Shown: positions 32,953 to 64,000, numbered from the stretch's first letter. The stretch: 64,000 bases of DNA from Sphingobium sp. (GCF_023266575.1 NZ_JAHFPV010000001.1); one strand, 5' to 3'. Notes: generated by a model not told the origin, from the letters alone. Made by a program: numbers and translations.

Positions 32953-33732
32953 ATGGCTGATCTTTCGGGCAAGGTGGCGATCGTCACCGGCGGCACATCG
33001 GGCATAGGCCGCGCGACCGTCCAGCGGCTGGCGCGGGATGGGGCGCAGGTCGTGTTCACCGGATCAAATGAGGATGCGGCCAGCACCCTGTGCGCGCAAA
33101 CCGGCGCGCATTTCGTCAAGGCGCGGGTGCAGGAGGAGCGCGACTGGGACAAGGTCGCCGCCTTCATCAGCGACAAGTTTGGCCGCCTCGACATCGCCTT
33201 TGCCAATGCGGGGACCGAAAGCGGCGACGGCAGCGTGGAATCGATCAGCATGGAAGGCTGGGCCGGGATCATCGGCGTCAACCAGACCGGGGTGATGCTG
33301 ACCGCCCGGACGGCGCTGCATCTGATGCGCGTCAATCCCGGCGGGCCGTGCGGGTCGATCATCATCAACTCGTCCATGTCGGCGCACAAGGTGATGGGCA
33401 ATTACATGGCCTATTCGGTGACCAAGGCGGCCGTGCTGGCCATGGCCAAGTCGGTCGCCATCCATTGCGCCACCGAAAAACTGCCGATCCGTTGCAACGC
33501 CATCCTGCCCGGCGTGGTGGAGACGGAGATGATCAGTGCCATCATCGCCAAGTCCGAGTCGCCCGAAGGCGCACGCGCGGCCTATAACAGCATGTCGCCG
33601 ATGGGCCGTATGGGCAGCGTCGAGGATATTGCCGCCCTCGTCGCCTTCCTCGCATCCGACGAGGCCGGTTTCATTTCCGGCGCGGAATATGCCATTGACG
33701 GCGCATCGACGGCCGGGATGACCGGGGTGTGA
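32953..33732 (+). CDS. Short-chain dehydrogenase/reductase (SDR)
   Basis: KVAIVTGGTSGIGRA, ANAG, YSVTKAA; 259 aa. Confidence 0.9.
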   Translation: MADLSGKVAIVTGGTSGIGRATVQRLARDGAQVVFTGSNEDAASTLCAQTGAHFVKARVQEERDWDKVAAFISDKFGRLDIAFANAGTESGDGSVESISMEGWAGIIGVNQTGVMLTARTALHLMRVNPGGPCGSIIINSSMSAHKVMGNYMAYSVTKAAVLAMAKSVAIHCATEKLPIRCNAILPGVVETEMISAIIAKSESPEGARAAYNSMSPMGRMGSVEDIAALVAFLASDEAGFISGAEYAIDGASTAGMTGV

Positions 33733-33905: not shown

Positions 33906-34129
33906 TCGCGGTCAGGTTTCCACGGAAAATGTTGAGAAAAAGCGGGTCGCGTCGCTCACGTTCTGGTTGCCCCGGCATCAACTAGCCGGCGTGACAGGAA
34001 CGGTCGTCCGCGTTGCCGGTTCCGCTGTTCGACGGTCCGACCGGTTCAACGGAGGGTATGTTCCACCCTCTTGTCCCAAAACAGGACAACAGACGATTAT
34101 TTCAGTCTGGATGCCGTTTTGGGGGGGCT

Positions 34130-37100
34130 ATGGAGCAGGACGTAAAGGCATTTCGCAAGTTGGGCGACTTGCTGGCCCGCGGGCGGCGCTCCTTGGACCG
34201 GTTGCCGGGGGACTGGCGTCTGCGTCGCCGGGCCGCGCTGCGCAATTCCTCCAGTCTGGCAAACCGGCTCCATTTCGAAGCGGTCGAGCCGCGCCTGCTG
34301 CTGGCGGCGGACGTGCCGCCGATCACCGGCACTATCGAAGTGCCCGGCGAAACCGATCGCTTCGCATTCACCCTGACCGAACCCAAAAAGGTGGTGTTCG
34401 ATTCTCTTACCGCCACCAACAATATGTTCTGGGCACTGGCGGACCAGAAGGGCAGCATTGTTTCGAACCGCAATCTGGCCCAGTCGGATTCCTACGATTT
34501 TTCGGGGGGCAACATCCTCGATTTGCAAGCGGGCGAATATACGCTCAGCATTGATGGGCGGGCCGACGCGACCGGCAATTATGCATTCCGCTTGCTTGAT
34601 ACAGCCAATGCCGACGTCTTTACGCCGGGTGATGTCGTCAACGGGCTGCACAAGGCGAACGAAACCGCGCTGTACAAGTTCGACGCGTTGGCCGGGGACA
34701 GTTTCTTCTTCGACGCGCACAGCTATCCGGCTGAATCGACAGCATGGCGGCTGATCGGCCCGGACGGCGAATATGTCACCGGGCCACATGGGTTCGACGA
34801 TTCCGGTGCCTATCTGCTGAACCGCAGCGGTACGTACATGATGGAGATTGAAGGCCGGGTGTATAATTCGGCCACGGCCGACATCAGCTATTCCTTCACC
34901 TTCGGCAAGATTACGCAGACCGGCGCTGCCCTGACGATCAACGAGCGGGTGCAGGGTCGCCTTGCGACCGCAGGCAGCAGCACGGTGTTCGATTTCGATC
35001 TCGCCAGCGACAGCAAGCTGCTGTTCGACAATCTGATCCGCCGCGATAGCCTCAAATGGTCGCTCAGCGGACCGCGTGGTCAGGTGATCAACAACCGGAA
35101 TTTCAACAGTTCGGATTCCTTCAACGGGGACCCGCTGCTCAATCTGGTCGCGGGGCAGTATAAGCTGACGGTATTTGCCGATGGCGACGCAACCGGTGAT
35201 TTTGCCTTCCGCCTGCTCGATTTTTCGACGACCGCTACCGCGATCAGCGCAGGGGACAGTTTTGGCGCGACGATCGAGGATGGCGGCGCGCTGGCCAATA
35301 TTGCGCACCCCACAGGCGCGCCGCTCGACTATTCCGCGCAGGGCGGGACGATCAACCGCAGTTGGGATGTCGCCACGCTCGGCGAGCTTGAAGTCGCGAA
35401 CGATGCGGCACTCAATCCGGCCGCGATCACGGTCGAGGCATGGGTCAACGCACGCAGCGGCGGCGGCTTCTATCAGGGCATCGTCAGCAAGATAAACGAT
35501 ACCGGATGGAGCAACGGCTATGGGCTGGTGCGTGTCGGGGGCAATGTCCGCTTCTTCGTCAACAATTGGAACGATGGCTTTGTCGAAGCACCGCTCGCGA
35601 CGGATCAATGGAAGCATGTTGCCGGTGCCTATGATGGCACGACCTTGCGGCTTTATGTCGATGGCGCGCTGGTTGCCGAAAAGGCCTATGACGCCGCGAT
35701 CAACCACAGCGCCAATGCGCTCAACATCGGTGCGGCACCGACCGGCAATTATCAATTTGACGGGCAGGTGGACGATGTCCGCCTATGGGGCATGGCGCGC
35801 AGCGCAGCCGACATCGCCAGCGGATATCAGCGCCCGCTGACGGGCAGCGAGAGCGGCCTTGCGGGCTATTGGCGCTTTGACGAGGCGACCGGTCAGACCG
35901 CTGCGGATATCGCGCCGGGCGCGCTGGTCGCCAGCGGTGTCCTGCGGCGCGGGACCGAGACAAAGCTGTTCCGGTTCGACGGGGTGAAGGATGACCATTA
36001 TTTCTTCAACCTGCTCAGTGCCAGCAACAACCAGTATATACGGGTCTATCGCCCCGACGGCACGCTGCTGCTCAACGGTTCGGGACTGGGCGATATCGAC
36101 CTTGGGGAGTTGCCCGAAACGGGCGAATATCTGATTGCCGTCGAAGGCTATCTCTACAATCAGGGCAGCGCGGCATTTACCGCAGAGCTGCTAAAGGTGT
36201 CGGACGATGCTGCCGCGCTGACGCTGAACGCGCTGACCAGCGGGCGGATCGATGCCGGAGAAGCCGATCGCTTCACATTCACGCTGAGCGAAGCGACGAA
36301 GCTGGCCTTTGACTCGCTGACGGCAAACTCCGCGCTGAGTTGGTCGCTGACGGGGCCGTTTGGCTCAGAAATCACCAATCGCAATTTTTACTATTCCGAT
36401 TCAGCCGAGATCGACACCAGTAGCAGCCAATTGCTCAATCTTGCGCCGGGCGCATATACGCTGACGGTCGACGGTGCCGGGGACACGGCTGGCGATTATC
36501 AGTTCCGCCTGCTCAACCTTGCAAGCGCAACTGCGCTGACCCTTGACGCAGAAACCACCGGCAGGCTGGAGCCGGGCAACGAGACCGACATGTTCGCGTT
36601 CACGGGGCAAGAAGGCGATGCGATCTCGGTCGAGCGGATTTCGAGTACGAACGTCAATGCGTTCTGGCGACTCTATGATCCGCTGGGCCGTCTCGTCACA
36701 TCCGCGCGCCAGTTCAATGGTTCGGTGCCGCTCACGCTCGATTATGATGGAACCTATGTTCTGGTCCTCGAAGGGCGGGTGTGGGAAGGCGCGCCGGTCG
36801 ACTATGCGCTCAAGGTCAGCCGTACCGGCAGCACGGCACCGCCCGACAGGGGTACAGGCACCGCGTTCACTCTCGGCGCTGCGGTTAGCGATACGCTGAG
36901 CGCCGCAGACGAAATCGATCTCCACAGCTTTACCATAACGGCACCCACCAGGGTCTATTTCGACAGTCTGACGCCCGACACGGGCAAGACCTGGGCGCTG
37001 TTTGGCCCATCCGGGCGCATCACGCCGGATCGCGCCTTCTATTACACCGACAGTTTCGAGAATTACGCAAACACATTTATCGACCTGACCCAACCGGGCG

Positions 37101-58100: not shown

Positions 58101-61100
58101 CGCCCAGTTTCCCGGCGGCACCGGGGCAAAATGTGCTGATCCACGCCGTGGCCGACAGCCTGGCGGACATCACATCCCTGCGCGTTCTGCTCGACGGCCA
58201 GGAGGTGCTGCTTGATGCGAACGGGCGGGCAACGGTGGTGGCCGGTTCGCCAGGCAAATATAGCTTCACCGTCACTGCGCGCGACGCAGACGGTGGCGAA
58301 AAGACGATTACGCAAATCCTTAAAGTGCGCGACCCGCTGGACAAGAACGCGCCGAGCGTGCTGTTCGACGGAGCCATCGACGACGCTATCGTCACTTCGA
58401 CCCTGGCGATCACCGGGACCATCGACGACAGCAATCTCGACGGCTGGACGCTGCAATTGATCGACGGGCAGGGTGATGTCACCCTGCTGGGTGAAGGCGG
58501 TGCCAACCTTGCTGGTACGCTCGCGACGCTGGACGGGCGCAGCCTGGCTGACGGATTCTACCGCCTGCGGCTGACCGCCACCGACATTTCCGGCCGGACC
58601 AGCGTGGACAGCGCCACGATCGAACTGCGCACGGGCGCGGACAAGACGTCCCGCTATACCACGCAGCATGTCGATATCTCGACCGTGCTGGGCGGCGTGC
58701 CGTTCGATCTGGTCCGGGCCTATGACAGCATCACGGGCAAATGGACGTTCCTTGGTCTTGACGCTGATATAGTCACCAGCGTCGGCAGCCAGCCCAACGC
58801 AGGCGGCGCGCTGCCCGCGTTCGAGATTGGCACGCGACTGTTCCTGACCTTGCCCACCGGAGAACGGGCGGGCTTCACCTTCAACCCCGTTGAGGAGGTC
58901 ATCGGCGGGCAGACCTTCTACCGCCCCGCCTGGACGGCTGATGGCACACATGGCTGGCAGTTCAGCTCGATCGATGTCCAGCTTCGCAAGATTGGCGGCA
59001 AATTCTACGATGTGGATAGCGGCGCGGCCTATAATCCCGGTTCGCCAGTGTTCGGCGATCGTGACTATGCCTTGCGTGCGCCTGACGGCACGATCTACAT
59101 TCTCGACAGCCAGCGCGGCACGGTCGAAATTCAAAAGGCTGAAGGCAAGCTGCTGATCGGCGACAGCGGCGTCACCGCGCTGGGCGGCGATGCGCTGCGC
59201 TTCCTGCATGATGCGCGCGGCAATGTTACCCAAGTCACCGATGCAACAGGCAAGGCAAGCATCTACAGCTGGGACGAGGACAACCAGCTGACTGCATTGC
59301 GCGATCTCGTGACCGGGGCGGGCGTCCGCTACGGCTATGTCGATGGTCGGCTGGCGCTTGAAGTGCCTTCATCGGGCGCAGGCAAACGGATCGTCTATAA
59401 TGGCGACGGCACCGTGGTGACGGAGGCGATTGTCGCTGATCTGGCGACCCCGGCGACGTTCACCGGCCAGACGGTATCGGGCGATCTTGGCGCAGGCGGC
59501 GCGGAAAGTTTCGCGTTCACGCTGCGCGAAAGCGAGTTGGAGGGGCTTCCCAACACATTCGTTATCCTCAGGGTAGAGACCACGGGAACGGTAATGCCCC
59601 AGATCACAGGGCTGACCCCTCTGGCAAGCGCCCAGGCTGGCGGCAAGCTTGTGACGCTGTTCGCCCTGTCCACATCGGGACTGCACGAGTTGCGGATGTC
59701 TGGCAGTGGTGCCTATTCCTTCGAGATGCGCGCCGCGGGCGATATCAACGGCGATGCGAAGGTCGATGGGCTGGACAGTGCCGCCGTGGTCGCCGCTCTC
59801 GCCGGATCGGATGTCAGTGGCGATGGCGTGACGGACGCGATCGACAATCAGATCGTCGCTGCCAACTATGGTTTCCGGGCGAACCAGTCGCCGGTAATCG
59901 CCGCCACGATTCCGCTGGAAAAAACCCATGTCGACTTGCAGCGTTATGTCGATCTGACCAAGCTGGCGACCGACCCGGATGGCGATCGTCTCTATTTCCG
60001 TATCGTCGGTGCGACTGGTGGAGCGGCTGCCCTGGCCGCCGATGGGCGTGGCGTCCTGTTCACGCCGACCGCCGGCTATTCGGGCGCGGCGTCGATCCGC
60101 TTTTCGGCCGATGACGGCTTTGGCAGTTCGGCCGAAGGCGTCATCGACATCAACGTTTCCGATGCGGCCTTATTGTCCTTGAATTTCGCGCTGCGCCAGC
60201 CAGCCTTTGCGGCACCGGGCGAAAGTGGCGGCGTGGGCCTTGTCGGTCAGTTTGCCGATCAGGCCGATGTTTCGCTGCCCTATTCCTATGTGACGGCGAG
60301 CGTCGGCCATCCCGATATCGTCCGTTTGGGCACGGACGGGACATTATTGGCTCTGGCTCAGGGGTCGACCTATCTGAAGGTCTCACGCGGCAATATCGCG
60401 GCGGCGACGTCGCTGACGGTGGGCGAACCCGACAGCGTGCGTGAGTTGATGACGCAGATTTACGGGATCAACGCCTATCCCGACAGCGTGACCCTGCTGC
60501 CCAACGGCGGCTCACGCGCCATTATCACCAGCCTTGATCCGACGGAGGAAACCTTCGCCAACGGCGCGGCGGCAGGGACCGTCTATGTATCCGCCGACAG
60601 CGCGATCGTGACCGTCGATGAAAACGGCCTGATGCGCGGGGTCGGTGCCGGATCGACCTTTGTCACCGTGATCAACGGCTTCAGCGAGGATCGGGTGATG
60701 GTGTCCGTCACGCCGCCGGTCATTGGGGATGATGTTGCGGTCAATGGCGCTGCGGGTGCCATCGTGCAGAATGCCGATGGCGTCCAGATCGCCTTTGGGC
60801 CGGGCACGCTGAGCGGCAATGCCACGGTCACGATCGATACGCTGACGGAGGCAGAACTGCCCATCGTCATGCCCGCGACCGATGCGTTCCACTTCCTGAG
60901 CGCATTCGACCTTCAGGTCGATGGCGCGGAATTCAACGATACGGTCCAGATCGCGGTGCCGGTAACGGGCAATCCGGGGGATCAGGTCTGGTTCTTTGCC
61001 AGCGTCGATTTGCCGCTTGGACCGAATGGTGAGACTATTCCGGTCTGGACGGTCATCGATTCCGGGGTGATCGATGCCGACGGCATGGCACGAGCCAAGT

Positions 61101-64000
61101 CGCCGCCATTTCCTGGCCTGAGCAGGCGTGGCGCGGTCCTGGTCGCGGGTGCGGCCAAGCCGTTGCCGATCCTGCGGCTGAACGTCGGCTTCACGGCGCT
61201 CAATGCGCTGGTGTTCGCGCCTGCCATCGGCATTGCCGCCGTTGGCGGCCTGGCTGGCGCGACGGTCGCGCTTGGTCTGGCTGGCGCTGCCATCGGGTCG
61301 ATCGCGCTGCCGCTGTTTGCGCAGCTCAAGGAAATCCAGATTTACGCCGATCTGGCGAAAGATCAGGACGCCGTCCGCCGGATCGACCTGTCGCCTGAAT
61401 TTACGCAGGCGGAACTGAATGACGGCAAGACGATCCTTGCCAGCTTCCCGCCGCAGGCCTTCCAGTCCGACAAGGGACCGATTGTCTCCAGCGTCGCATC
61501 GCTGGTCGCCAATGACGGCAGCACGTCCGTCACGATCACAGGGCTTGACTTCATCGACGGTGAAGCCGGATCGATCAGCGCAAAGACCAGCAACGTCCGG
61601 GTCGTCCTGACCCACGGATCGAAGCGGGTTGTGATATCCGATGCAGTCATAACCGGCAGCATTGGCGGGACACAGCGACTAAGCTTCACGGCACCGCCCA
61701 CCGTCCTGCTGGGGGCCAGCGATATCACGATCGTCCGCCCGGCTGTCGGATCGTTCGGGTCGGCGAGCGGTGAGCCCAATGATTTCACCGAACTGGTCGA
61801 AAGCGCGGTGGTCAAGATCGACAACAAGGCGGGATATGCCTTTGTCGGCGATGCGAAGGGCGTGCAGATCATCGATCGCAAACTCTCGTTCGAAACGACA
61901 CAGGCTACGGACCAATTGATCGCCCGTATCGATCTTGGCGCGCCGGTCAGGGAAATCGTCGTGACCGGCGACCTGGGCGCAGCATTTGTGGCGACCGAAA
62001 AGGGTATTGCCGTCATCGATACGCTGACGCTGCGCCAATATGATCTCAACCCCAATAGCGACAATGATTTCATCAAGGTCGAGGGCGGGGTGGTCACGGC
62101 GCTCGCGGTCGATACGGAGAATGGCTATCTCTACGCAGCCGGGCTGGGCAAGGTCTATGTCATCAACATTGATCCGGGCCGGGACAATTATCTGAAGGTC
62201 ATCGCCGACCCGCAACATACGCTGAATATGGAAATCACCAGCAAGGGCGAACAGTTCGGCCATATCACGAGCATGGCACTGAATGCCGATGGCACCCGCC
62301 TCTATGTGGGCCTGCCGGTATCCGAAATGTTCGGTCAGCGCCCCTGGATCAACAATCAGAACAGCGATGCCGGCCTGATCATGGTCGTCAACGTCGATGA
62401 GGAACAGCGCCCGGCCGAGGATCAGGCCAATATCCACGGATGGCGAACTGTTGTGGACAAGGTCGCGGCAGGTATCGAGGTGTTCGATATCCAGCCGACC
62501 GTCGATCCCAACAAAATGGTATTCGTTGCGCGCGGGGACCGCAATCGCGGTGCCAAGTTGCTGGAGCGCACGCCTGCCGGAACGCACATCGTTACCCAGG
62601 TCGCGACCCTGACCATGGGTCAGGAAATCGGCGTGTTCGAACAACCGTTCACCATCGCCGGGCTGGTCATCAGCGTCGACAAGAAGCGCAGCACCGATGA
62701 AGGCCGCTTTTCGATCGGCCGGGTGCCGGATCTCAACGTCCATAATGCGTCGGGCATCGCAGTCACGCCGGACTTGGAATATATGTTTGTCGCTGATTGG
62801 GGTTTGCCGACCCTCTATTGGTATCGCGACCTCGATTACTCTCAGCTGGTCGATGAATTTTACCGGGTCGGTTCAAAAATTCTCGTCATCCAGGATCCCT
62901 TCGGGCCGAACCGTCGGCTCGTCGGGGCGACGACGCCGGTTCCGTTCGCGTTCCTGGAGGAATTGCGTGTCGATAGCTCCGGCACCAAGCTTTACGCGAA
63001 TTACCGGGGTGCCGGTAACATCGTCATCATGGACATCAACAAGGTCCGCGACATCGCCAAGCGCAGCGATTTCGACAAGCTGCTCGTCGAGTTTCAGGAC
63101 AAGGCGATCGATAACCCCAACTATCCCTTCGATATCTATAATGAATCCACCGGCCAGGGTGCCGTTGACGTCACCCGGCATGGGCGCGGACTGGCGCTCA
63201 ATGCGATCCAGGCGCTCAATCTGCTCACCCCGACGACCGAACTGGACCTTCATGGCGACAACCCGCCGCCGCTGACCTTCAAGTGGGAATTCGATCCGAC
63301 GCTCATTCCGGCTGGATCGGTTATGAAAACCAGCTTCTATCTCAGCACCCTCGCGCCCGGCGACGGGTTGTGGCCGGACGATCCGATCCGCGAGAGAGGT
63401 TTGCTGCAACAGCCCGACTGGCAGGGTTCCGACAAGCATCCCAGCCGCATTTTTACCAAGGTGAATCTGGAAGCGGGCAAATGGCGGGTTCTGGCGAGCG
63501 GCGAAGTGGTGTCGGATGGGGCGCTGCCTCCGGGCAAATTTGAACTGACCTTCGATCCTGAATTTGCGCGGGTTCTGACCGGTGGGCAGACCTATTTCTG
63601 GGGCGTCCGTTCAACCGAATTTGGCATTCGCGATTTCCGGCAATTTACCGTTCTGCCCGACAAGGTGCCGGCCGGCACGTTCAACGGCGTGACCGTACTG
63701 ACCCATGGTTTCCAGCTGGACGGCATCTGGACCGACAATGATTCCTTCCACCAGCCTGCGGCTTTCCAGGAAATGGGAGAGATGATCTCGCGTCTGGGCG
63801 GGGGCGGCATCGTCCTGCTCTATGATAAGAACAAGGGCACCTGGGTGGACATGAGCAACCCGACAAGGGTTGTCACTGGTGATATGCTGGCAGCCTATGC
63901 CGGCAAGCCTGTCGTGCTGATTTCGGACTGGGTCCGTGAATCCGCCCATGCCGAAGCGGGTTTCTCCGAAGCTGCCGCCGACGCTCTGTTTGCCGCGCTC
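34130..64000 (+). CDS. Giant (at least 9,957 aa, 3' end beyond window) mosaic repeat protein; candidate extracellular adhesin or lectin-decorated fibre
   Basis: Frame 2 (codon starts = 2 mod 3) opens after TGA 33992-33994. I translated it by eye without meeting a stop over 34130-34700, 35402-35890, 38762-39360, 40082-40670, 41882-46390, 51122-56300 and 59702-64000. The ORF track lists no + frame-2 ORF anywhere in 33995-64000, although frames 1 and 3 hold many 60-200 aa ORFs. That pattern is expected if frame 2 never terminates and the ORF finder requires a stop. 29,871 nt = 9,957 codons. Candidate starts are ATG 34130 (G7 run upstream), ATG 34058 and TTG 34013. The product is domain-like throughout (see sub-features). 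Confidence 0.9.
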   Translation, partial: MEQDVKAFRKLGDLLARGRRSLDRLPGDWRLRRRAALRNSSSLANRLHFEAVEPRLLLAADVPPITGTIEVPGETDRFAFTLTEPKKVVFDSLTATNNMFWALADQKGSIVSNRNLAQSDSYDFSGGNILDLQAGEYTLSIDGRADATGNYAFRLLDTANADVFTPGDVVNGLHKANETALYKFDALAGDSFFFDAHSYPAESTAWRLIGPDGEYVTGPHGFDDSGAYLLNRSGTYMMEIEGRVYNSATADISYSFTFGKITQTGAALTINERVQGRLATAGSSTVFDFDLASDSKLLFDNLIRRDSLKWSLSGPRGQVINNRNFNSSDSFNGDPLLNLVAGQYKLTVFADGDATGDFAFRLLDFSTTATAISAGDSFGATIEDGGALANIAHPTGAPLDYSAQGGTINRSWDVATLGELEVANDAALNPAAITVEAWVNARSGGGFYQGIVSKINDTGWSNGYGLVRVGGNVRFFVNNWNDGFVEAPLATDQWKHVAGAYDGTTLRLYVDGALVAEKAYDAAINHSANALNIGAAPTGNYQFDGQVDDVRLWGMARSAADIASGYQRPLTGSESGLAGYWRFDEATGQTAADIAPGALVASGVLRRGTETKLFRFDGVKDDHYFFNLLSASNNQYIRVYRPDGTLLLNGSGLGDIDLGELPETGEYLIAVEGYLYNQGSAAFTAELLKVSDDAAALTLNALTSGRIDAGEADRFTFTLSEATKLAFDSLTANSALSWSLTGPFGSEITNRNFYYSDSAEIDTSSSQLLNLAPGAYTLTVDGAGDTAGDYQFRLLNLASATALTLDAETTGRLEPGNETDMFAFTGQEGDAISVERISSTNVNAFWRLYDPLGRLVTSARQFNGSVPLTLDYDGTYVLVLEGRVWEGAPVDYALKVSRTGSTAPPDRGTGTAFTLGAAVSDTLSAADEIDLHSFTITAPTRVYFDSLTPDTGKTWALFGPSGRITPDRAFYYTDSFENYANTFIDLTQPGDYQIRVQGSTGTYSFRLLDFASATPVAADGSVTSSTLTPVRESDIFSFTASAGEKIVLDVRDYPNSASWRIFSSNGRQLFGPAGFDYHELTMPVSDTYYFVVEGRVWDSSASDNYAFILNRPADPAPIDLTLNDIVEGTIAKTGDVQRYRFTVDTQKLVIFDNFSAEVYLEWALTGPQTSVGNRFYYSDSYEQQNRTPMLLEAGDYELVVRGSQQVETGGRTLGDYKFRLLDAAAGTLLAVDGSSTSGTLDPGRETDVYRFTATAGEKIFFDGIQGAGNGSVRILDAFGQVVYGPTDFRDSAITMPRAGTYTLLVEGRPWDNTATINYQFALSRIEADPAPIALNFGERTTATIAKPTQKQRYTFTLTAPKSFYFDSFTPDTEMSWTISSAGLNLVSSNFYSTDSYENSADRIFTLPAGDYSLDISGNAGKTGSAEFRLIDTVSATALDFGQPVRSDLTPLRETDVYSFEGTAGETIFYQNLQSQPNASLRIIDPDGLQFVGPTNMDNREIVLPKTGRYLILVEGRVWDASASQSYGFTLQKPTNPTQTIVIDGTTNAALTRPGKIGNALSFSAHEQIQIVDPALDLRQDVTVEFWINPDRQADTWSPIVYKADDAGQRGYSVWFNANGQIHFSSMRGASNDTLETASGAVPYGEWSHVAAVLERSTGTMKIYINGVLAASRSVSTALSNGSPATPLFVGGTSEYNEAHRKFEGGLDEVRVWSSGRTEAQIAATMNVGAPTDTTGLALRLGLDAVTSGAVTNSVTGAAIPVLRDLANVKGVVEGRLDTPGDKRTYTFTVAERTMMVFDSLHDNDQMVVSVTGPGGFSISNNLRNGDSYELGGRNPVFTVEPGTYTILVDGTGAATGAFAFRLLNLSAAPLVPFDTAISQTASGSSESYAYRLNVNPGDNLLLDVQQVTNSNNRVSYRLIDPYGRQIFGPVDFASRESGALAIGGVYTLIVEPRVWREWPVDFRFAAYKVASTPPVAITLDGPNPQAPQIQPGKSGNALTLRGVDYVEVPSSAEVSPSRNLTVEGWFKLDRFTNSWTSLVAKSTHSTSPYRIAVNGNGSVWAAVRDASGVQSIQTGGGLIAAGEWAHIALVADRDGGAMKILVNGVEQASGTIRIGNNADAGEPLLIGQYEEVETSYGQWEGAVDSFRIWDIARSEADVAAGMTSPPATGTSGLLYALDFESIALSGDALLRTTNPNGVSGRIAQPGESDIYSFSLTAETLVMLDSLTNSGDINWTLTGPQGEVVSARRFSDTDSADFTASPVLRLGAGDYELKIDAVGSVTGNYNFRLRDLSLGTPLTLGSPVSGTLTPTSETDIYRFAANAGETFFFDGGTVHNDMRWRLIDPFGNEVFGPNTVGNIDGLELPISGVYSLLIEGRAYTATVADYQFGVYPITTQNAALTIGSRVDGSIGTVGESDAYSFTLGAASKLVFDALTTATIFNWTLRGPDGVEVASRNVHDSDGFDFGGNPVLSLGAGSYTLTIDATAENTGDYSFRLLDLASAEELVPDGTFNRTIAQNGRETDMFRFTATAGMRFGFDVVSNSSSNNSWRLIDPLGQVIFGPVGLGDTDLMTAVMAGTYTLLVEGRRSATTDGSYSFIYNQPTILPAGGQTSQNFDVAGLPYILGNHRGTAAQILADGGDNVIRLTDSLQVNSQNSIAFSATGSGRQDVVDLGFDFRLTRRAGQTEDADGFGLLYLPVSQYGNGGPGMLVTPEANLAGALGIGFDTLSNGEVNANHISIHYNGVKLTDIANPGLTLASGNWARARIVVERTDGGSLVTIELTPEGGATIAAVTDFFVAGMELEAGRLVLGASQGSATADQDFDNFAIAMTAAAQPMTALTLNDAVSGSIAAAGAVQRYEFTLTEETAVVFDALTNNGALRWEISGPTQTPAPRSFNGTDSAEFSGNPVMTLAPGTYRVAISATGTNTGSFSFRLASLADGTAINLNETQDLTLTPGNLTEIYRFDAMAGQALFFDLLSGSNDPFWRLIDPAGNLVFNTTRVGDVEEPLLPLDGTYTLLIEGRVGTSAPQTLSFRVVDMVESITPLTIGETINGTIAAPGTKVRYTFSVSDPQYLIFDSLINTTQFAWTLTGPSGTILSRHFQNADAHSGASPGAIFFEPGDYAITVDANDDLTGDFAFRLLDTALASDLVLNAPTTGRLEPGNSTNLYKFTGAVGDNIYFDFISSPGSGQWRLFDPDGRVAMSANYRSDTGFITLEKAGVYTLAYEGQIGEGGPVDYQFQVDKVVHKSRTIDLGETISSKLDQPGQREDLLFTLTEETLVYVDALSPFGDVSWRLTGPAGDFAALPFTQTDSYDRSNAQVVYRLPAGDHVLRIESGTTADRDYSIRLQKLADALPITPGVPVNGTLSPGAETDMYRFEGEAGDRFFFDRLSYAGVSTHWRLIAPNGRQLFAGDMNDVDTLVLPDSGSYTLLIEGYVQQAASVGTYSFNVIENTLIAPIRISSLEVRPSPDLIPIELAVSSSGTISSGSEITISWKTRNQGTRPTDGAWQDRVLLRNLDTNEIIGNILLDDSGTVIAAEGERQRQTTLTLPTGNRGVGRIGVTVTNDVANTISEENILGTAETNNAATLEFTSQLAPFRDLVVSAVTADPAGGWNPGDTVTVNWTTTNAGNSATAADFSERVFVRNVMTGQQVQVATVGFTGALGAEEAAQRSAQITWPAGIVGQGIFEFSVVTDIFDQVAEANITATGETNNSTAETITSAPDLQIRNLAISNSAPASGDVITLTWNESNLGNVGTLAGFDNRLLVQNLTTGETLLNSTIITTSALAAGESRARTTSFTLPEGQRAVGDIRVTIIADSNANGQTSVREAAAGVAAEGNNSAQAAVAVTARQYADLRVSNVSAPANGLGGGNITVSWTVTNAGVATADGVTWSDRVILSSDAVIGNADDVILGNVTRTGGLAEGGSYNGSGTLALPNVTSGNYRIYVVADAAQDIVEPDTRADNVGGPANLAITSRAPNLVTEAISGPTATVLGGDPFTVSWRVRNTGDAAAAGGHVDRLVLSADGVADADDLVLAEVSRDAGLAIGDSYTVSVQARVQDGRSGDYRLILVTDAGSTVFENGLEGDNAGVSTPVRFAVAPSGNLVVESVTAPAGARPGETVEVSYIIRNSGTVTASAPWADRIYVDDDTTVSGATTLASIVRTFDLAPGETYEVRQSVTLPVNLADGTYNILVRADVGQQVFEGGIEADNDGASGALVLTHPDLVPINVTLPGGANPQSNSDIAVTWQVRNDGSGASIGGWTDSLWLSRDGIVGAGDIKLGEVVRGSSLGVGEVYDGALTVRLPIDASGEYRIIVQSDSTAAVPETNVGETNNSASVALTVGLAPYADLEVSNVTAPARTINDPARVTVGWTVTNIGTGLGTTDSWTDRVYVSRDDIFGDGDDILLGELVHSGGLALGDSYDANLDLILPAGFYGRYTLFVRSDATEAVFENGADANRTALAGFFDVSPIAWADLQIESVVAPTLAQSGTSIDVTWRESNQGIGLTNTGEWFDSVYLEKTDGSGRILLGSVNHLGFLGVGDSYDRTANFTLPDGIAGDYRIVVIAPGGENPGNQPYEFAFTGNNSGTSAPISISLAPPPDLRVTAISAPTNGVEGGVVDISWTVKNEGLSAAEGSWVDRVYLRKAGDSGAGTLIGTYSYTGPLAAGTSYTRREEMRLPAKTSDRFEVIVVTDAADAVYEHTAEANNRSVDDQSILVSVLPRPDLQISEIIAPDRVTAGATASVDFTVINQGLIEANGNWTDQVWLSLDDKISGDDILVSQLANPIALDSLESYESSSATFTVPLRFRGNVFVLVATDTGNAIDEWPNDTTASNVRAQQIYVEPVPFADLVVDNVVTNAQAFEGNSVPVRYTVTNRGAGTSNLGQWTEQIWLTRDKNRPHPGLGDILLTSVAYTGGPLVEGQGYDRELTVTLPASVVSGTYYIMPWVDPYATLLEDSLAINVNPDDPAEIQSSNYRARAIQIVGTPPVSSTRAIAVTDVTAPVSAKGGDDFTVNWTVRSTGDAQANGWMDQVYLSDAPLLENARNIFDLGSSQNLSPLDPGASYTNSATFKLNPAAAGLYVIVKSTLGGDPNTLDNAKFAATSVTNAPADLQVVSVVPAAPGVVAYSGERTSVTYTVENKGAPVWSGTQYWTDQIWVSKDPTFIENRATYVGSVTQANEGLGTGQSYTNTLEFDMPPGVDGEYYVYVFTNTPRRPVVPSDIVRSGDNDALRDQAFRNFVFELPAGTVEQAQFPVVYREADLKVTELTLPDTLPAGGTVEISFRVENVGTRATRENSWVDRVYLSLDASLDEGDWLMSREASPGVIVRAENTHVGILNPGESYIAKVTVSLPFELEGGFNVIAAADSGLEQSGYANSTLSPRLAGVRGAVNGKVREYAGEGNNLTVQPVTLTPYTPPDLQVATLSAPLRATRGQPFRVEYSVTNVGGATPTLQPQWDDLVYLSRDPFLDLTSDRFLGSIRHTGGLDAGGTYSVVKDFVVPGDLGTEAYYVFVVTDPARYDATGSLFEADERNNVRGSDVPMVIELPPPTDIQVTDIVAPDNKQAGDPVTISWTVTNKSAVTASGSWSDAVYLSRDATWDVGDKLLGRANFAGSLLADQSYTLNLDTTLPGAAAGDYRIIVRADARNQLFEDVGEANNITAAANATSISIETLTLGIPLSANLKPGQERLYRIVVPAEQTLRLRVASDDERAINEVFLRHDDVPTSALFDATYTGPLAQELTAIVPDTEPGVYYVMVRGYSGPDEGSTVRLIADLMPMVITSIDTDTGGDSRYVTTTIKGARFHENAILKLSRPGIAEFEPVAWEVVDSSTIIATFDFTDAPHGLYDLKVTNPDGAETVEPYRFLIERGIEPEVTIGVGGPRVILAGDQATYSIALQNISNLDAPYTFFQVGVPELNYNQYVYGLKFLEFFTNVRGIPEGAEGSDNANVPFINLESITNTNGQLLTSGFLFDQPADGFGGFTVNIRTYPGLKEMADRAFSAFQDRMNSLFPDLAPILDGGEGGLGDWWEAVKDKVSEIMPAARSTLDQLDFVGLYQQNSAVPSKDEIPFIPFRFHIVAAATTMTRAEFVDFQSKQARDLRTAILEANDAPAPLLALAADEGQWTDLYLAALEQAGLLRDEQDVPPIRTKQHIVSMMTTLASGILFGPGGSAVRSTGDLLAFFDQIRAYYGHQDGLMAAIEYMDPRHSDKYDGEIPVPALPVRADYDLGLSTPTHFEAFRIFVPWVPFDQRGAGLPADFQINGPEPVDGQEFAQLDFSRFFASEGQVNRLASITGPQTLDTQGWLPGAAELPYTVSFENAAGSARYTNEIQVVTTLDPDLDPRSFRLGDIKIGDINIDVPDGRTSFDAEIDFTATRGFILRVSAVLDLFQQPASASWLIQAIDPLTGEVLQDATRGLLAPNDASGKGAGFVSYTIVPADDVATGERISASARVLMDGFAPEDTIVLSQMIDAAAPTSTLTAKRVGTTANFEVNWRVLDDVGGSGVKHVTLYAAENGGDFKIWQRMLPDVSGVLVFEGEAGKSYEFLALATDIAGNREVPKPGVNAISDGSSVNLGGVPTVPDTTAPNFGQPPAPTPEPSTNALFTQAEALVPAAAPLSAPSEFDSVLSPFVARAFATGITRSTSEIGPMAIVETPEADFLVSGGTNRGTIWKFSGQGGAAATPFAELDTAIFNMAFDADGGLWATTGGGPLLRLDPQTGAVLDRFGDGVTIALAVHPTTGKIYVSTNSGVSIFNPDDGSFTQWSRDENLRVGSLAFDNDGALWAVTWPDRKQVVRFTDRARAETMLTFDAPADSLAFGQAGTRLDGLLFVTHTAGTVDDAGLAEPGGALTMVDTATLRRIDVAKGGSRGDVVITTSDGRVLVSQSNQVDIIAPATAPVVVATNPSPGAQIALPQAFLSVTFDQDMFAGAASQAGSVTNAEYYTLNHATLGAQQIRAVTYDAASRTAYLNVGNIPAGDYTLTIGAPLTSANGQRMGVNYQTGFAAFEDISTLVDILFEDTRLDRETGTISYKVTITNKTDGPITLPALLTIDPLGGFPGVPLGATGQTDDGRFLIDLSGALPPDGILEAGESTSGRTVSITTSANRRLDFVTGIVANAVPNTAPSFVSVPPQSATVGTPLSYQVVANDAEGQAVSFGLLTAPAGMTIDATTGLLQWTPPAGTASITPVVIEAFDARGAVSLQRFVLAIAGGNRAPEFTSSLSAVSSGEGQLFEFELVAVDPESQPLTYWADGLPAGATFDPATRAFSWLPGYESAGTYDVRFFVTDGLSRDEVVVTLFVAERNEPPQVVPVADRIAREGDLVNFRINASSRSDRELSYGAETLPFGATLNPTTGEFTWTPNYIQNGVYDIAFFVTDGETLVRFVTKITVGNANAAPVFDQLEGWQILEGQQLAFNVFAFDPDNPYYTPALRNGENGEAVETSETSRSVTVQLIGDIPPGATFDPDTYDFTWTPTNAQAGDHVVRFRATDNGDGTGVPLTTDIIVPISVFNQNRRPVVSPIENATVAKDAVLEIPVSASDADGNPLVLALRNESPFRPLPNFITFVDNGDGTGKIRVAPGANARGDHVVIVTATDDGDGSGEPLGGGYAFTIKVTSPNEAPEIGYIGDVVAVIGEAMKVVVNVADMDQDALTYAVAGLPGATITPTSIYGKALIEWTPTLAQAGNHDALVTVTDSGSGVVTPVSDTASFKVVVRATNAAPQLAPVGNHSITEGEALAFTLSGADADNDRLTFTMSGAPETASLDPVTGAFVWTPPLNSSGEYSVTFSVSDGHSSSSETITLTVANANQAPVFVPMGLQLAREGAPMVFRIIAGDPDADPVIYQAPNGLPEGMLFIPARGEIQWTPGYAQAGDHILRFTATDPLGAVDSIDVMVRVANVNRLPVLDEGYHAFLIGEEKRFTVRASDPDSEDVLTFSAEDLPEGASFDAVTGEFVWTPGPGQAGDYAVTLIADDGRAKVRQTILLRATIDPVPPVVRLELTPSFPAAPGQNVLIHAVADSLADITSLRVLLDGQEVLLDANGRATVVAGSPGKYSFTVTARDADGGEKTITQILKVRDPLDKNAPSVLFDGAIDDAIVTSTLAITGTIDDSNLDGWTLQLIDGQGDVTLLGEGGANLAGTLATLDGRSLADGFYRLRLTATDISGRTSVDSATIELRTGADKTSRYTTQHVDISTVLGGVPFDLVRAYDSITGKWTFLGLDADIVTSVGSQPNAGGALPAFEIGTRLFLTLPTGERAGFTFNPVEEVIGGQTFYRPAWTADGTHGWQFSSIDVQLRKIGGKFYDVDSGAAYNPGSPVFGDRDYALRAPDGTIYILDSQRGTVEIQKAEGKLLIGDSGVTALGGDALRFLHDARGNVTQVTDATGKASIYSWDEDNQLTALRDLVTGAGVRYGYVDGRLALEVPSSGAGKRIVYNGDGTVVTEAIVADLATPATFTGQTVSGDLGAGGAESFAFTLRESELEGLPNTFVILRVETTGTVMPQITGLTPLASAQAGGKLVTLFALSTSGLHELRMSGSGAYSFEMRAAGDINGDAKVDGLDSAAVVAALAGSDVSGDGVTDAIDNQIVAANYGFRANQSPVIAATIPLEKTHVDLQRYVDLTKLATDPDGDRLYFRIVGATGGAAALAADGRGVLFTPTAGYSGAASIRFSADDGFGSSAEGVIDINVSDAALLSLNFALRQPAFAAPGESGGVGLVGQFADQADVSLPYSYVTASVGHPDIVRLGTDGTLLALAQGSTYLKVSRGNIAAATSLTVGEPDSVRELMTQIYGINAYPDSVTLLPNGGSRAIITSLDPTEETFANGAAAGTVYVSADSAIVTVDENGLMRGVGAGSTFVTVINGFSEDRVMVSVTPPVIGDDVAVNGAAGAIVQNADGVQIAFGPGTLSGNATVTIDTLTEAELPIVMPATDAFHFLSAFDLQVDGAEFNDTVQIAVPVTGNPGDQVWFFASVDLPLGPNGETIPVWTVIDSGVIDADGMARAKSPPFPGLSRRGAVLVAGAAKPLPILRLNVGFTALNALVFAPAIGIAAVGGLAGATVALGLAGAAIGSIALPLFAQLKEIQIYADLAKDQDAVRRIDLSPEFTQAELNDGKTILASFPPQAFQSDKGPIVSSVASLVANDGSTSVTITGLDFIDGEAGSISAKTSNVRVVLTHGSKRVVISDAVITGSIGGTQRLSFTAPPTVLLGASDITIVRPAVGSFGSASGEPNDFTELVESAVVKIDNKAGYAFVGDAKGVQIIDRKLSFETTQATDQLIARIDLGAPVREIVVTGDLGAAFVATEKGIAVIDTLTLRQYDLNPNSDNDFIKVEGGVVTALAVDTENGYLYAAGLGKVYVINIDPGRDNYLKVIADPQHTLNMEITSKGEQFGHITSMALNADGTRLYVGLPVSEMFGQRPWINNQNSDAGLIMVVNVDEEQRPAEDQANIHGWRTVVDKVAAGIEVFDIQPTVDPNKMVFVARGDRNRGAKLLERTPAGTHIVTQVATLTMGQEIGVFEQPFTIAGLVISVDKKRSTDEGRFSIGRVPDLNVHNASGIAVTPDLEYMFVADWGLPTLYWYRDLDYSQLVDEFYRVGSKILVIQDPFGPNRRLVGATTPVPFAFLEELRVDSSGTKLYANYRGAGNIVIMDINKVRDIAKRSDFDKLLVEFQDKAIDNPNYPFDIYNESTGQGAVDVTRHGRGLALNAIQALNLLTPTTELDLHGDNPPPLTFKWEFDPTLIPAGSVMKTSFYLSTLAPGDGLWPDDPIRERGLLQQPDWQGSDKHPSRIFTKVNLEAGKWRVLASGEVVSDGALPPGKFELTFDPEFARVLTGGQTYFWGVRSTEFGIRDFRQFTVLPDKVPAGTFNGVTVLTHGFQLDGIWTDNDSFHQPAAFQEMGEMISRLGGGGIVLLYDKNKGTWVDMSNPTRVVTGDMLAAYAGKPVVLISDWVRESAHAEAGFSEAAADALFAAL
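34283..34309 (+). other. LEPR-x-LL-type N-terminal motif of the giant protein
   Basis: Residues ...RLHFEAVEPRLLLAADVPP... about 50 aa from the start. They resemble the LEPRxLL motif reported at the N-termini of very large repetitive bacterial proteins (recalled from NCBIfam descriptions, not searched). Confidence 0.5.
35345..35890 (+). other. LamG / concanavalin-A-like lectin domain 1 (inserted between the A and B domains of module 2)
   Basis: DAALNPAAITVEAWVNARSGGGFYQGIVSK...DQWKHVAGAYDGTTLRLYVDGALVA...NIGAAPTGNYQFDGQVDDVRLWGMARSAADI...LAGYWRFDE is the classic Laminin_G_3 pattern. Confidence 0.8.
38780..39360 (+). other. LamG / concanavalin-A-like lectin domain 2
   Basis: GKIGNALSFSAHEQIQIVDPALDLRQDVTVEFWINPDRQADTWSPIVYK...GEWSHVAAVLERSTGTMKIYINGVLAA...FEGGLDEVRVWSSGRTEAQI. 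Confidence 0.8.
40095..40670 (+). other. LamG / concanavalin-A-like lectin domain 3
   Basis: GKSGNALTLRGVDYVEVPSSAEVSPSRNLTVEGWFKLDRFTNSWTSLVAK...GEWAHIALVADRDGGAMKILVNGVEQA...WEGAVDSFRIWDIARSEADV. Confidence 0.8.
41960..42610 (+). other. L-type (legume-like) lectin-fold domain
   Basis: NSIAFSATGSG...FDFRLTRRAGQTEDADGFGLLYLP...LGIGFDTLSNGEVNANHISIHYNG...GNWARARIVVE...LVLGASQGSATADQDFDNFAI parallels the legume-lectin landmarks (ADG.aF; vEFDT..N....NHiGIdvN) as I remember them. Confidence 0.55.
44515..51130 (+). repeat. About 17 tandem CARDB-like (cell-adhesion-related domain in bacteria) repeats, period about 365-480 bp
   Basis: Repeat heads of the form (P/A)DL.V..V.AP.....G....V.W.V.N.G lie near 44527, 44920, 45287, 45683, 46053, 46424, 46785, 47160, 47537, 47917, 48286, 48660, 49095, 49443, 49888, 50367 and 50765. 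Each ends ...Y.I.V..D....V.E..E.NN. Confidence 0.75.
53990..54790 (+). other. Beta-propeller region (NHL/SGL-like blades), followed by an SbsA-type Ig-like domain to about 55130
   Basis: Recurrent blade-like segments: FNMAFDADGGLWATTGGGPLLRLDPQTG, IALAVHPTTGKIYVSTNSGVSIFNPDDG, SLAFDNDGALWAVTWPDRKQVVRF and VVITTSDGRVLVSQSNQVDII. Then VVATNPSPGAQIALPQAFLSVTFDQDM...YTLTI. Confidence 0.55.
55460..58060 (+). repeat. 9 tandem cadherin-like / putative-Ig (He_PIG, dystroglycan-type) repeats, about 270-350 bp each
   Basis: Repeat heads N.AP.F lie near 55475, 55745, 56020, 56290, 56640, 56950, 57255, 57525 and 57795. The recurring core is ...LP.GA.FDP.TG.F.WTP...Q.G.Y.V.F.V.DG......I.V.N.N.AP. Confidence 0.75.
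59738..59875 (+). other. Dockerin-type-I-like duplicated Ca-binding loop/helix segment
   Basis: GDINGDAKVDGLDSAAVVAALAGSDVSGDGVTDAIDNQIVAANYGF holds two D.NGD/D.SGDG..D..D loops, each followed by a short helix. This is the dockerin duplicated F-hand layout. Confidence 0.55.
61178..61322 (+). other. Internal hydrophobic Gly/Ala-rich (glycine-zipper-like) segment, long enough for a transmembrane hairpin
   Basis: LNVGFTALNALVFAPAIGIAAVGGLAGATVALGLAGAAIGSIALPLFA: about 48 uncharged residues with repeated G-x3-G spacing. It lies between Big_2-like domains (about 60270-60720) and an IPT-like domain (about 61470-61760). Confidence 0.5.

Follow-up and report, generated by a model that had tools for sequence, protein, structure and literature searches.

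The DNA studied here is a stretch of 64,000 nt from Sphingobium sp. (GCF_023266575.1, NZ_JAHFPV010000001.1), referred to below as the window. From position 34130 to its last letter the + strand can be read without interruption as a single protein, which raises two questions: is this open reading frame (ORF) a real gene and, if so, how would its product get out of the cell? Few proteins exceed 10,000 aa, and their passage out of the bacterial cell is an open question. We found that 34130-64000 is the first ~81% of a real Sphingobium gene under purifying selection. The product carries the N-terminal motif of the LEPR-XLL class of giant proteins and, judging from its domains and from the genes that follow it in related genomes, is probably a surface protein that is exported or processed by an adjoining gene cassette.

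34130..64000, + strand: giant ORF, codons 1-9,957 of ~12,219-12,397, cut by the window end (stop-free frame, ratio of nonsynonymous to synonymous substitution rates (dN/dS), orthologues)

The open reading frame

No in-frame stop was found when frame 2 of the + strand was followed from 33995 to the window end at 64000, a span of 30,006 nt or 10,002 codons. Counted from the ATG at 34130 the window contains 9,957 codons, and the original prediction of one continuous + strand frame was therefore borne out. A mononucleotide model with local base composition predicted ~302 stops over the same span (log10 P(no stop) ~ -133), and 275 and 261 stops were counted in the other two sense frames. The GC content at codon positions 1, 2 and 3 was 0.62, 0.48 and 0.74, respectively, a typical coding pattern. 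Since the frame is still open at the window end, the gene escapes an ORF track restricted to closed frames, as had been pointed out. The five long minus-strand ORFs offered by that track instead (1328, 1156, 692, 593 and 552 aa) were all present. All long antisense open stretches share a single antisense frame, and one antisense frame has 32 stops, compared to 326 and 453 stops in the other two. Genes of high GC content usually cast shadows of this kind, which agrees with how these ORFs had been read.

In three independent public assemblies (L015, L016 and L017), which stem from the same strain or one almost identical to it, the called gene begins at the ATG at 34130, and this start also fits the 12,393-aa gene call in Sphingobium sp. 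B2 (L005). Residues are numbered here from this Met. An alternative in-frame ATG lies at 34058 with GGAGG 2 nt upstream; it is replaced by GTG in L016, which differs from the window between 34058 and 34130 by two other substitutions, both synonymous in frame 2. From the sequence, a start at 34058, 24 codons earlier than the called one, is possible, with little at stake (24 aa).

Conservation and full length of the gene

Giant repeat-rich ORFs are sometimes misassembled, and on this prior the long ORF might have been the product of a chimeric or collapsed assembly, a pseudogene or a frame left open by chance where the DNA is rich in GC. A related gene is indeed found in pieces on a low-coverage (3x) metagenome contig from ENA (L011, 1-10001), where the homologous giant was called as seven consecutive fragments of 46-1,019 aa, probably because of frameshift errors. 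The comparison with other genomes, together with the stop statistics given above, effectively refuted such an origin for the window gene. Using the last 400 aa as the query against a genome collection, orthologues were found in Sphingobium sp. AS12, Sphingobium sp. AN641, S. xenophagum and S. indicum, with 96-98% identity in the best segment. The four genomes (L001-L004), representing four Sphingobium species, are collinear with the window without a single indel over the last 3,733 window codons, and the search of related genomes that had been proposed was thus successful. Over these codons dN/dS was 0.041-0.062; over codons 1-3,201 it was 0.09 in comparison with L016, giving a range of 0.04-0.09 against five other genomes or assemblies, in none of which an indel was seen. 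L015, L016 and L017 were located by using the complete SDR gene upstream as an anchor. Two of these independent assemblies, L015 and L017, did not differ from the window in 9.6 kb of the giant gene (100% identity), and L016 showed 98.9% nucleotide identity.

Mis-assembly of a repetitive locus had been named as one finding that would overturn the prediction, and neither the self-similarity scan nor the comparison of assemblies gave any sign of collapse. The 30-kb region contained a single 30-nt DNA self-match. The only tandem repeat reported by TRF in the 30-kb ORF was a 33-nt mini-repeat at 53151-53183 (15-nt unit x2.2, TCGGCGATATCAAGA), which is probably insignificant. The protein repeats are mostly no more than 54% identical, with one block of up to 71%. 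With repeats so old and diverged and with no DNA self-similarity, nothing in the sequence is able to cause assembly collapse. Outside the window, in the C-terminal He_PIG/Big_9 block of L001 (15579-16406), a 528-nt unit comprising two Ig-like modules is duplicated at 95% identity. It fits the length differences of 90-178 aa between Sphingobium strains, and nowhere else in the gene could a short-read assembly collapse.

As predicted, the C-terminus and the true length lie outside the window: in the orthologues the frame runs 2,262-2,440 codons further and ends with TGA. Complete gene calls gave 12,219 aa in L016 and 12,393 aa in Sphingobium sp. B2. From the orthologues the total length is 12,219-12,397 aa, of which the window holds ~81%. 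The upper value is that of a composite made of the window protein and the L001 extension, which was used below wherever a 12,397-aa protein is mentioned.

N-terminal leader and LEPR-XLL motif

The N-terminus of the protein consists of two elements:

34130..34267, + strand: basic Arg-rich leader, 46 aa (aa 1-46; translation, no hydropathy peak, same layout in family members)
34268..34336, + strand: LEPR-XLL motif, aa 47-69, 'RLHFEAVEPRLLLAAD' (NCBIfam NF012209, 25.2-29.1 bits vs cut-off 17)

The 24-residue model NF012209 scored 25.2 bits in a 996-aa chunk and 29.1 bits in the 200-aa N-terminus. The motif starts at residue 47 of a protein of ~12,200-12,400 aa, and the same layout was seen in 80 of the top 150 relatives. 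The N-terminal 400 aa matched 2,171 representative clusters. A Sec-type signal peptide h-region was absent, as no 19-aa window with a Kyte-Doolittle value above 1.6 occurs before residue 7615. The motif places the protein in a recognised but uncharacterised class of giant proteins, of which the gene is a further member, belonging to a Sphingobium-type subfamily without experimental study. The statement that its combination of modules is not recognised from any characterised adhesin was right in that no relative has been experimentally characterised; it went too far in that the LEPR-XLL class is already recognised and near-identical orthologues are public.

The Pfam family Planc_extracel (PF07595) had been expected on the leader and was given up, since no Pfam family was reported for the N-terminus even at E <=10. 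This planctomycete cell-surface signal motif (Studholme 2004) is a short N-terminal motif of the 'LE.R.LL' type, borne by proteins with a predicted extracellular location, and may be akin to the leader described here.

A conserved gene cassette downstream of the giant genes

The export route had been expected to lie beyond the window, and a candidate for it was found directly downstream of the giant gene in the orthologues. In L001, L002 and L004, the TGA of the giant gene overlaps the ATG of a 100-aa DUF3467 gene (ATGA). This gene is followed by one for a GAF-GAF-HlyD adaptor and by the start of an M50-type gene, in which HELGHGF was present in L002 and L004; L001 ends before the motif. When the GAF-HlyD adaptor was used as a probe and the surrounding contigs were read, the order of the cassette was DUF3467, GAF-GAF-HlyD adaptor, a fusion of a PqqD-like domain (the type that serves as a RiPP recognition element, RRE; RiPP, ribosomally synthesized and post-translationally modified peptide) with M50 and HlyD parts, a truncated SecA-like ATPase and, in most loci, a small HlyD-type adaptor. 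A tblastn search with the SecA-like protein led to further cassettes on annotated RefSeq plasmids. All 12 cassettes examined, on chromosomes and plasmids of Alpha- and Betaproteobacteria, adjoin either a gene for a protein of 10,303-12,737 aa or a small LEPR-XLL protein. Besides the giants of L001, L002 and L004, the partners were as follows:

Sphingobium sp. B2 (L005): giant of 12,393 aa
Croceibacterium aestuarii (L006): giant of 12,558 aa
Accumulibacter (L007): giants of 10,565 aa and 11,962 aa flanking one cassette (L007 1-9623 and 18106-21866)
Methylobacterium: giant of 10,303 aa
JGI genome (L012): giant of 10,593 aa
ENA metagenome scaffold (L013): giant of 12,431 aa, with SapC instead of DUF3467
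Sulfuritalea (L014): giant of 11,368 aa
L011 (3x-coverage contig): giant in fragments
Mesorhizobium ciceri plasmid: 31,557-nt coding sequence (CDS), 10,518 aa, annotated 'Ig-like domain-containing protein'
Pseudosulfitobacter plasmid: 38,214-nt CDS, 12,737 aa, annotated 'putative Ig domain-containing protein'

On the plasmids the accessory genes are annotated in general terms, for example as 'DEAD/DEAH box helicase', 'translocase' or 'PqqD family peptide modification chaperone'. The only cassette without a giant was that of L010, where the next gene encodes a 612-aa protein starting '...GLEALEPRVLLSGD' and containing the same metzincin-like module as the giants (see below). All six visible N-termini, namely those of the window protein, Accumulibacter giant 2, the Methylobacterium giant, the L010 protein and the Mesorhizobium and Pseudosulfitobacter giants, passed NF012209. 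With a partner of 612 aa in L010 and every visible leader positive, the cassette tracks the leader and not the size of the partner. The two LEPR-XLL-type giants in Accumulibacter suggest that one exporter may serve more than one substrate.

DUF3467 was absent or replaced in L006, L012 and L013; in L013 a SapC-family gene (9192-9965, 229.7 bits) stands between the giant gene and the GAF-HlyD adaptor. The idea that DUF3467 is a SecB-like chaperone was tried and dropped, as neither PDB nor Pfam yielded an informative relative. The literature searched, which fell short of covering all journals, contained no paper on the cassette, and this absence is no proof.

Proteins encoded by the cassette

The M50 fusion protein is 715-725 aa long and consists of a PqqD-like domain, 6-8 transmembrane (TM)-like segments and a C-terminal HlyD_3 match. 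All three copies examined have HExxH and two have NPxxxxDG, which was not found in the Methylobacterium copy. The copy of Sphingobium sp. B2 (717 aa, likewise with 6-8 TM-like segments) has HELGH at residue 210 and NGNPFLRFDG at residue 304. With 28.0 bits against a cut-off of 27.2 for Pfam Peptidase_M50, the fusion belongs to the M50 family. Its best relatives in NCBIfam were intramembrane proteases of RiPP maturation (daptide, YydH/LiaK), all below their cut-offs; the daptide protease model gave 142.6 bits against a cut-off of 300 with the 717-aa fusion.

The SecA-like ATPase (660-685 aa) matched SecA_DEAD, SecA_PP_bind and P-loop_SecA, and both a Walker A motif and a DEAD box were present. 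It aligns only with residues 32-552 of B. subtilis SecA and ends ~58 aa later, just past nucleotide-binding domain 2 (NBD2). Going by the domain order of SecA, this leaves no room for a wing domain or a two-helix finger. The protein stayed below every curated SecA and SecA2 cut-off (best score 561 bits vs 814) and is thus not a canonical SecA. A SecA domain was found neither in the window protein nor in the C-terminal extension of L001. A TolC-family protein was identified in L005 (TIGR01844, 265.7 bits vs cut-off 225). From their motifs and domains the cassette proteins appear to be functional.

These resemblances also bear on another explanation, according to which the cassette is not the exporter of a giant that is itself real, and instead serves RiPP-like peptide maturation and export or signalling, for example by processing the DUF3467 product or by regulating the giant gene. 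The likeness of the M50 fusion to the daptide and YydH/LiaK proteases and its PqqD-like domain would agree with this, as would the small DUF3467 gene before the cassette in most loci and the GAF domains of the adaptor, which suggest sensing. We nevertheless consider such a role unlikely: a LEPR-XLL partner is always present, whereas DUF3467 is missing or replaced in the three loci named above, and the cassette accompanies the LEPR-XLL leader even where the partner has 612 aa. Furthermore, a SecA-type preprotein-binding motor is not known from any RiPP system, and a literature search found none.

Proposed export mechanism and its alternatives

If the giant protein is the substrate of the cassette, it would be exported unfolded and N-terminus first. 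The cytoplasmic PqqD-like domain would recognise the leader and the LEPR-XLL motif, as RiPP recognition elements do with leader peptides, and the SecA-like ATPase would drive translocation. The M50-HlyD fusion, the two adaptors and TolC would form the conduit across the envelope, and the M50 site may cut off the leader. Carried one step further, the LEPR-XLL leader would be the targeting signal of an undescribed Gram-negative secretion pathway, comprising a PqqD-M50-HlyD receptor, a truncated SecA motor, two HlyD-type adaptors (one of them GAF-regulated) and TolC, that exports unfolded, Cys-free proteins of 10,000-12,700 aa with the N-terminus first. We put this forward tentatively, as possible but not quite probable. 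If it is true, the window gene encodes a protein secreted by a novel kind of system in Gram-negative bacteria and not a T1SS adhesin (T1SS, type I secretion system).

Several points weigh against export by the cassette. The cassette lies outside the window and was deduced for the window strain from orthologues with protein identities of 94-99%. Export, leader recognition and cleavage are deduced from gene linkage and domain content, and the M50-HlyD fusion as a channel is a proposal. SecA normally requires SecYEG. The PqqD match was marginal, with 21.9 bits in Sphingobium (cut-off 23.4) and 26.6 bits in Accumulibacter. L005 is the only locus with a confirmed TolC-family gene close to the cassette; in L006 there was a faint OEP match at the locus edge. 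Adhesive and enzymatic functions were deduced from domain types, and both AlphaFold2 models of unique regions failed (see below). Finally, the LEPR-XLL motif also occurs on a Vibrio protein of ~8,000 aa which was reported to carry C-terminal RTX and serralysin domains (PMC10868602), so that the leader is not confined to proteins lacking RTX.

The Vibrio protein would equally suit a conventional giant adhesin of the T1SS type (RTX/LapA/SiiE-like), exported C-terminus first by an ABC/HlyD/TolC machinery encoded elsewhere while the cassette has another job. The window protein shares its giant size, near absence of Cys and wealth of Ig-like modules with such adhesins; HlyD-type adaptors lie near in all loci and a TolC-family gene in L005. 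In spite of this, four observations make type I secretion a rather unlikely route. The 12,397-aa composite contained no GGxGxDxUx nonapeptide. In ten loci, the Pfam-annotated genes called up to 10 kb away from the cassette included no ABC transporter; a gene for one may lie in another part of the genome. The family is defined by a conserved element at the N-terminus, and the C-terminus is basic and carries the only two Cys of the protein. We regard export by the adjoining cassette as the probable route.

Domain organization within the window

Pfam content supported the description of the product as a modular protein of extracellular type. Of the ten module families named in the original prediction, seven reached curated Pfam cut-offs (PPC, Laminin_G_3, CARDB, propeller, cadherin-like Ig, RHS/YD and Big_2), whereas L-type lectin (E = 0.02 and 0.1), IPT/TIG (E = 0.23) and dockerin (E = 0.005) were sub-threshold hints only. 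The following features were found from the leader to the window end (HMM, hidden Markov model):

34328..44467, + strand: 24 PPC-like beta-sandwich modules of ~105 aa each, aa 67-3446, interrupted by LamG and lectin-like inserts (iterated self-built HMM)
35399..35818, + strand: Laminin_G_3 (ConA-like) domain 1 (Pfam, 95.7 bits)
38822..39295, + strand: Laminin_G_3 domain 2 (Pfam, 101.5 bits)
40136..40606, + strand: Laminin_G_3 domain 3 (Pfam, 86.6 bits)
41918..42664, + strand: non-repeat insert of 249 aa with sub-threshold likeness to L-type (legume) lectins (Lectin_L-type_dom E = 0.021, Lectin_legB E = 0.097)
44549..51067, + strand: 17 CARDB modules of ~124 aa each, aa 3474-5646 (iterated self-built HMM; Pfam CARDB up to 196.6 bits)
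51068..53029, + strand: unique region with one PPC-like module (E = 0.0011), an IPT-like stretch (by eye) and an unassigned block of ~430 aa (Pfam)
53027..53809, + strand: DUF7619-like domain (Pfam, 28.7 bits vs 27)
53807..54829, + strand: beta-propeller 1 of the SGL / Reg_prop type (SGL 27.2 > 26.3; Reg_prop 21.7 > 20.4)
54767..55459, + strand: Big_5 Ig-like domain (Pfam, 31.3 bits vs 23.6)
55427..58129, + strand: at least 8 He_PIG / Big_9 / cadherin-like ('tandem-95') Ig modules, aa ~7100-8000 (Pfam, NCBIfam)
59207..59305, + strand: single RHS/YD repeat, aa 8360-8392 (RHS_repeat 30.0 bits vs 22; TIGR01643 20 vs 15.8)
59735..59860, + strand: dockerin-like Ca-binding loop pair, sub-threshold (Dockerin_1 17.3 bits vs 22.9, E = 0.005)
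59882..60157, + strand: Big_9 / Cadherin_5 module (48.4 and 36.6 bits)
60548..60682, + strand: Big_2 domain (24.4 bits vs 22.8)
61178..61327, + strand: Gly/Ala-rich hydrophobic stretch of 50 aa, aa 9017-9066 (Kyte-Doolittle maximum 2.02)
61757..63769, + strand: family-specific conserved region with a YVTN-type beta-propeller (four-homologue profile vs PDB)
63767..64000, + strand: start of a conserved domain of ~450 aa, cut by the window end (alignment of homologues)

The PPC-like modules were detected by the iterated HMM with E values of 1e-18 to 1e-29, copies being no more than ~50% identical, and the Pfam PPC model itself scored 29.9 bits against a cut-off of 25.9 in one chunk. The best PDB match of the lectin-like insert was the legume lectin 1f9k (E = 0.14), aligned on the signature motif. 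No Pfam match was obtained for a 431-aa segment of the unique region. In the Ig block, He_PIG scored 263.8 bits in 8 stretches, Big_9 151.7 bits and tandem-95 99.7 bits against a cut-off of 90; weak Ig and PKD matches were found between this block and the YD repeat.

The stretch at aa 9017-9066 is the sole strong hydrophobic segment in the window part of the protein. It is preceded by a conserved '...SPP(F/Y)PG' motif (here '...SPPFPG'), and the giants of Accumulibacter (L007), Sulfuritalea (L014) and L012 also have a hydrophobic stretch at the equivalent position. The segment has the look of a glycine zipper, ~9,000 residues into an otherwise hydrophilic protein, and might serve as a hairpin or anchor in the membrane or represent an insertion element.

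Single-sequence searches of the region 61757-63769 gave no Pfam match; the four-homologue profile matched the PDB entry 1l0q with E = 8.4e-15, followed by hydrazine synthase beta (9e-8) and YncE (1e-5). The region is collinear with the Sulfuritalea giant (31% identity) and the Croceibacterium giant (40%). No PDB relative of the following ~450-aa domain was found by sequence profile. In Sphingobium, a 'HFIGHSRGT' string with the look of an alpha/beta-hydrolase nucleophile elbow ('GHSRG') had suggested a lipase or esterase; this was dropped because the Ser is replaced by Gly in two of four homologues (Croceibacterium and L012). Single-sequence AlphaFold2 models of aa 8965-9957 and aa 5850-6650 had a mean predicted local distance difference test score (pLDDT) of 35.8 and 32.8, respectively, and were unusable.

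The protein beyond the window

In the L001 extension, a single HExxH module could be aligned with the zinc-binding helix of metzincins (karilysin, E = 4e-3), and a conserved Met lies downstream of it. Each of the six giants compared has one HExxH motif. The module may have proteolytic or self-processing activity, as its sequence motif suggests. Further on, the extension carries more Big_9/He_PIG modules, PKD and a Cohesin match. The protein, in which beta-sandwich domains abound, is Cys-free until its last 62 residues, its only two Cys being located in the basic tail, and its C-terminal 200 aa are conserved among three Sphingobium species.

The RHS/YD repeat scoring above its cut-off, together with the HExxH and GHSRG motifs in the C-terminal part, might point to a Rhs/YD-type polymorphic toxin with a variable C-terminal toxin domain. 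This is very improbable, as only one YD repeat and no Rhs shell were found, Sphingobium species share a conserved and not a polymorphic C-terminus (200 aa), and the stop is followed by the export-type cassette (DUF3467, adaptors, M50 and SecA-like proteins) with no immunity-like gene. The ConA- and lectin-like inserts, the CARDB and Ig-like spacers, the propellers and the cohesin/dockerin-like elements suggest that the protein is an extracellular fibre or adhesin-type scaffold which would bind glycans or surfaces.

Comparison with known systems

The closest likeness is to other LEPR-XLL ('LEPR-8K') giants, which share with the window protein a 24-aa N-terminal motif after a basic stretch and a giant, modular build with no recognised export signal, and which often have TolC, HlyD or SapC genes nearby (SapC in the case of L013). 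In Chlorochromatium, the record-size LEPRxLL giants Cag_663 (36,806 aa) and Cag_665 (20,647 aa) have no known export signals; their co-expression cluster includes SapC, TolC and a horizontally acquired secA, and SapC and TolC genes are their neighbours, SapC preceding both (bioRxiv 10.64898/2026.03.19.712371). The Chlorochromatium giants differ from the window protein in content, with haemagglutinin-type repeats and HK97-like folds in place of PPC-like, LamG, CARDB, propeller and metzincin-like modules.

RTX adhesins (LapA, SiiE, MpIBP and FrhA) are likewise very long, Cys-poor strings of Ig- or cadherin-like modules with ligand-binding inserts, and they too use HlyD-type adaptors and a TolC-type channel. 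In contrast to them, the window protein is free of RTX nonapeptides, its family signature is N-terminal and no ABC transporter was seen among the neighbouring genes. Its repeats are old and diverged (mostly no more than 54% identical) and not near-identical, and a SecA paralogue is the candidate for the motor.

West-Roberts et al. (bioRxiv 10.1101/2023.11.21.568195) described giant proteins of Omnitrophota and Actinobacteria with fused, truncated SecA-like domains and proposed that these domains drive the export of the proteins that contain them. In both cases a SecA DEAD and preprotein-binding module without scaffold and wing is tied to proteins of more than 10,000 aa. Here, however, the SecA-like part is a separate operon protein of 660-685 aa, the giant has one hydrophobic stretch in place of many TM helices, and the partners are an M50-HlyD fusion, adaptors and TolC in place of genes like those of type II secretion systems (T2SS) and type IV pili (T4P). 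With the RiPP systems (daptide and YydH/LiaK epipeptide) the 717-aa cassette protein shares a PqqD-like domain and an M50-type membrane protease with HExxH and NPxxxxDG. It differs from them in being fused to a periplasmic HlyD-like domain and partnered with a SecA-like ATPase, and the candidate substrate has 10,000-12,700 aa and is not a short peptide. The export route deduced from the cassette may be new.

Upstream neighbours

The left part of the window (1-33732) is a dense block of genes of catabolic type that is apparently unrelated to the giant gene. By identity with the annotated L015 and L016, it includes several SDRs, an AMP-binding acyl-CoA ligase, an acyl-CoA dehydrogenase and a thiolase, as well as Rieske, ThuA and SnoaL-like proteins and a GerE regulator. 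The nearest gene is the one used above as an anchor:

32953..33732, + strand: SDR oxidoreductase, upstream neighbour, outside the system (Pfam adh_short_C2, 186 bits)

Visibility in databases and significance

Two protein libraries yielded no full-length orthologue, the longest protein among the matches listed having 7,913 aa; many of these matches appear to be pieces of giants encoded on short contigs. When the last 993 aa were used in a word-index homology search, one match with 7% coverage was obtained (fragment P0001 of L011), which is no evidence of novelty because orthologues with 96-98% identity exist in genomes. A megablast search of a plasmid collection with 6 kb of the gene gave no match. 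With ORF tracks blind to open frames and the two libraries yielding no full-length orthologue, such genes are systematically under-reported.

Purifying selection on the Sphingobium gene is as strong as on many ordinary genes. The family is widespread, and the cassette-linked giants seen here all fall within 10,303-12,737 aa. It is tied to one compact set of genes, namely a SecA paralogue, an RRE-M50-HlyD fusion and adaptors, with a TolC-family channel in one locus. This tie makes the question of export testable in culturable, tractable genera such as Sphingobium, Mesorhizobium, Methylobacterium and the roseobacters. The chief interest of the locus lies in the conserved operon just past the window, a pointer to what may be a new way of exporting giant proteins.

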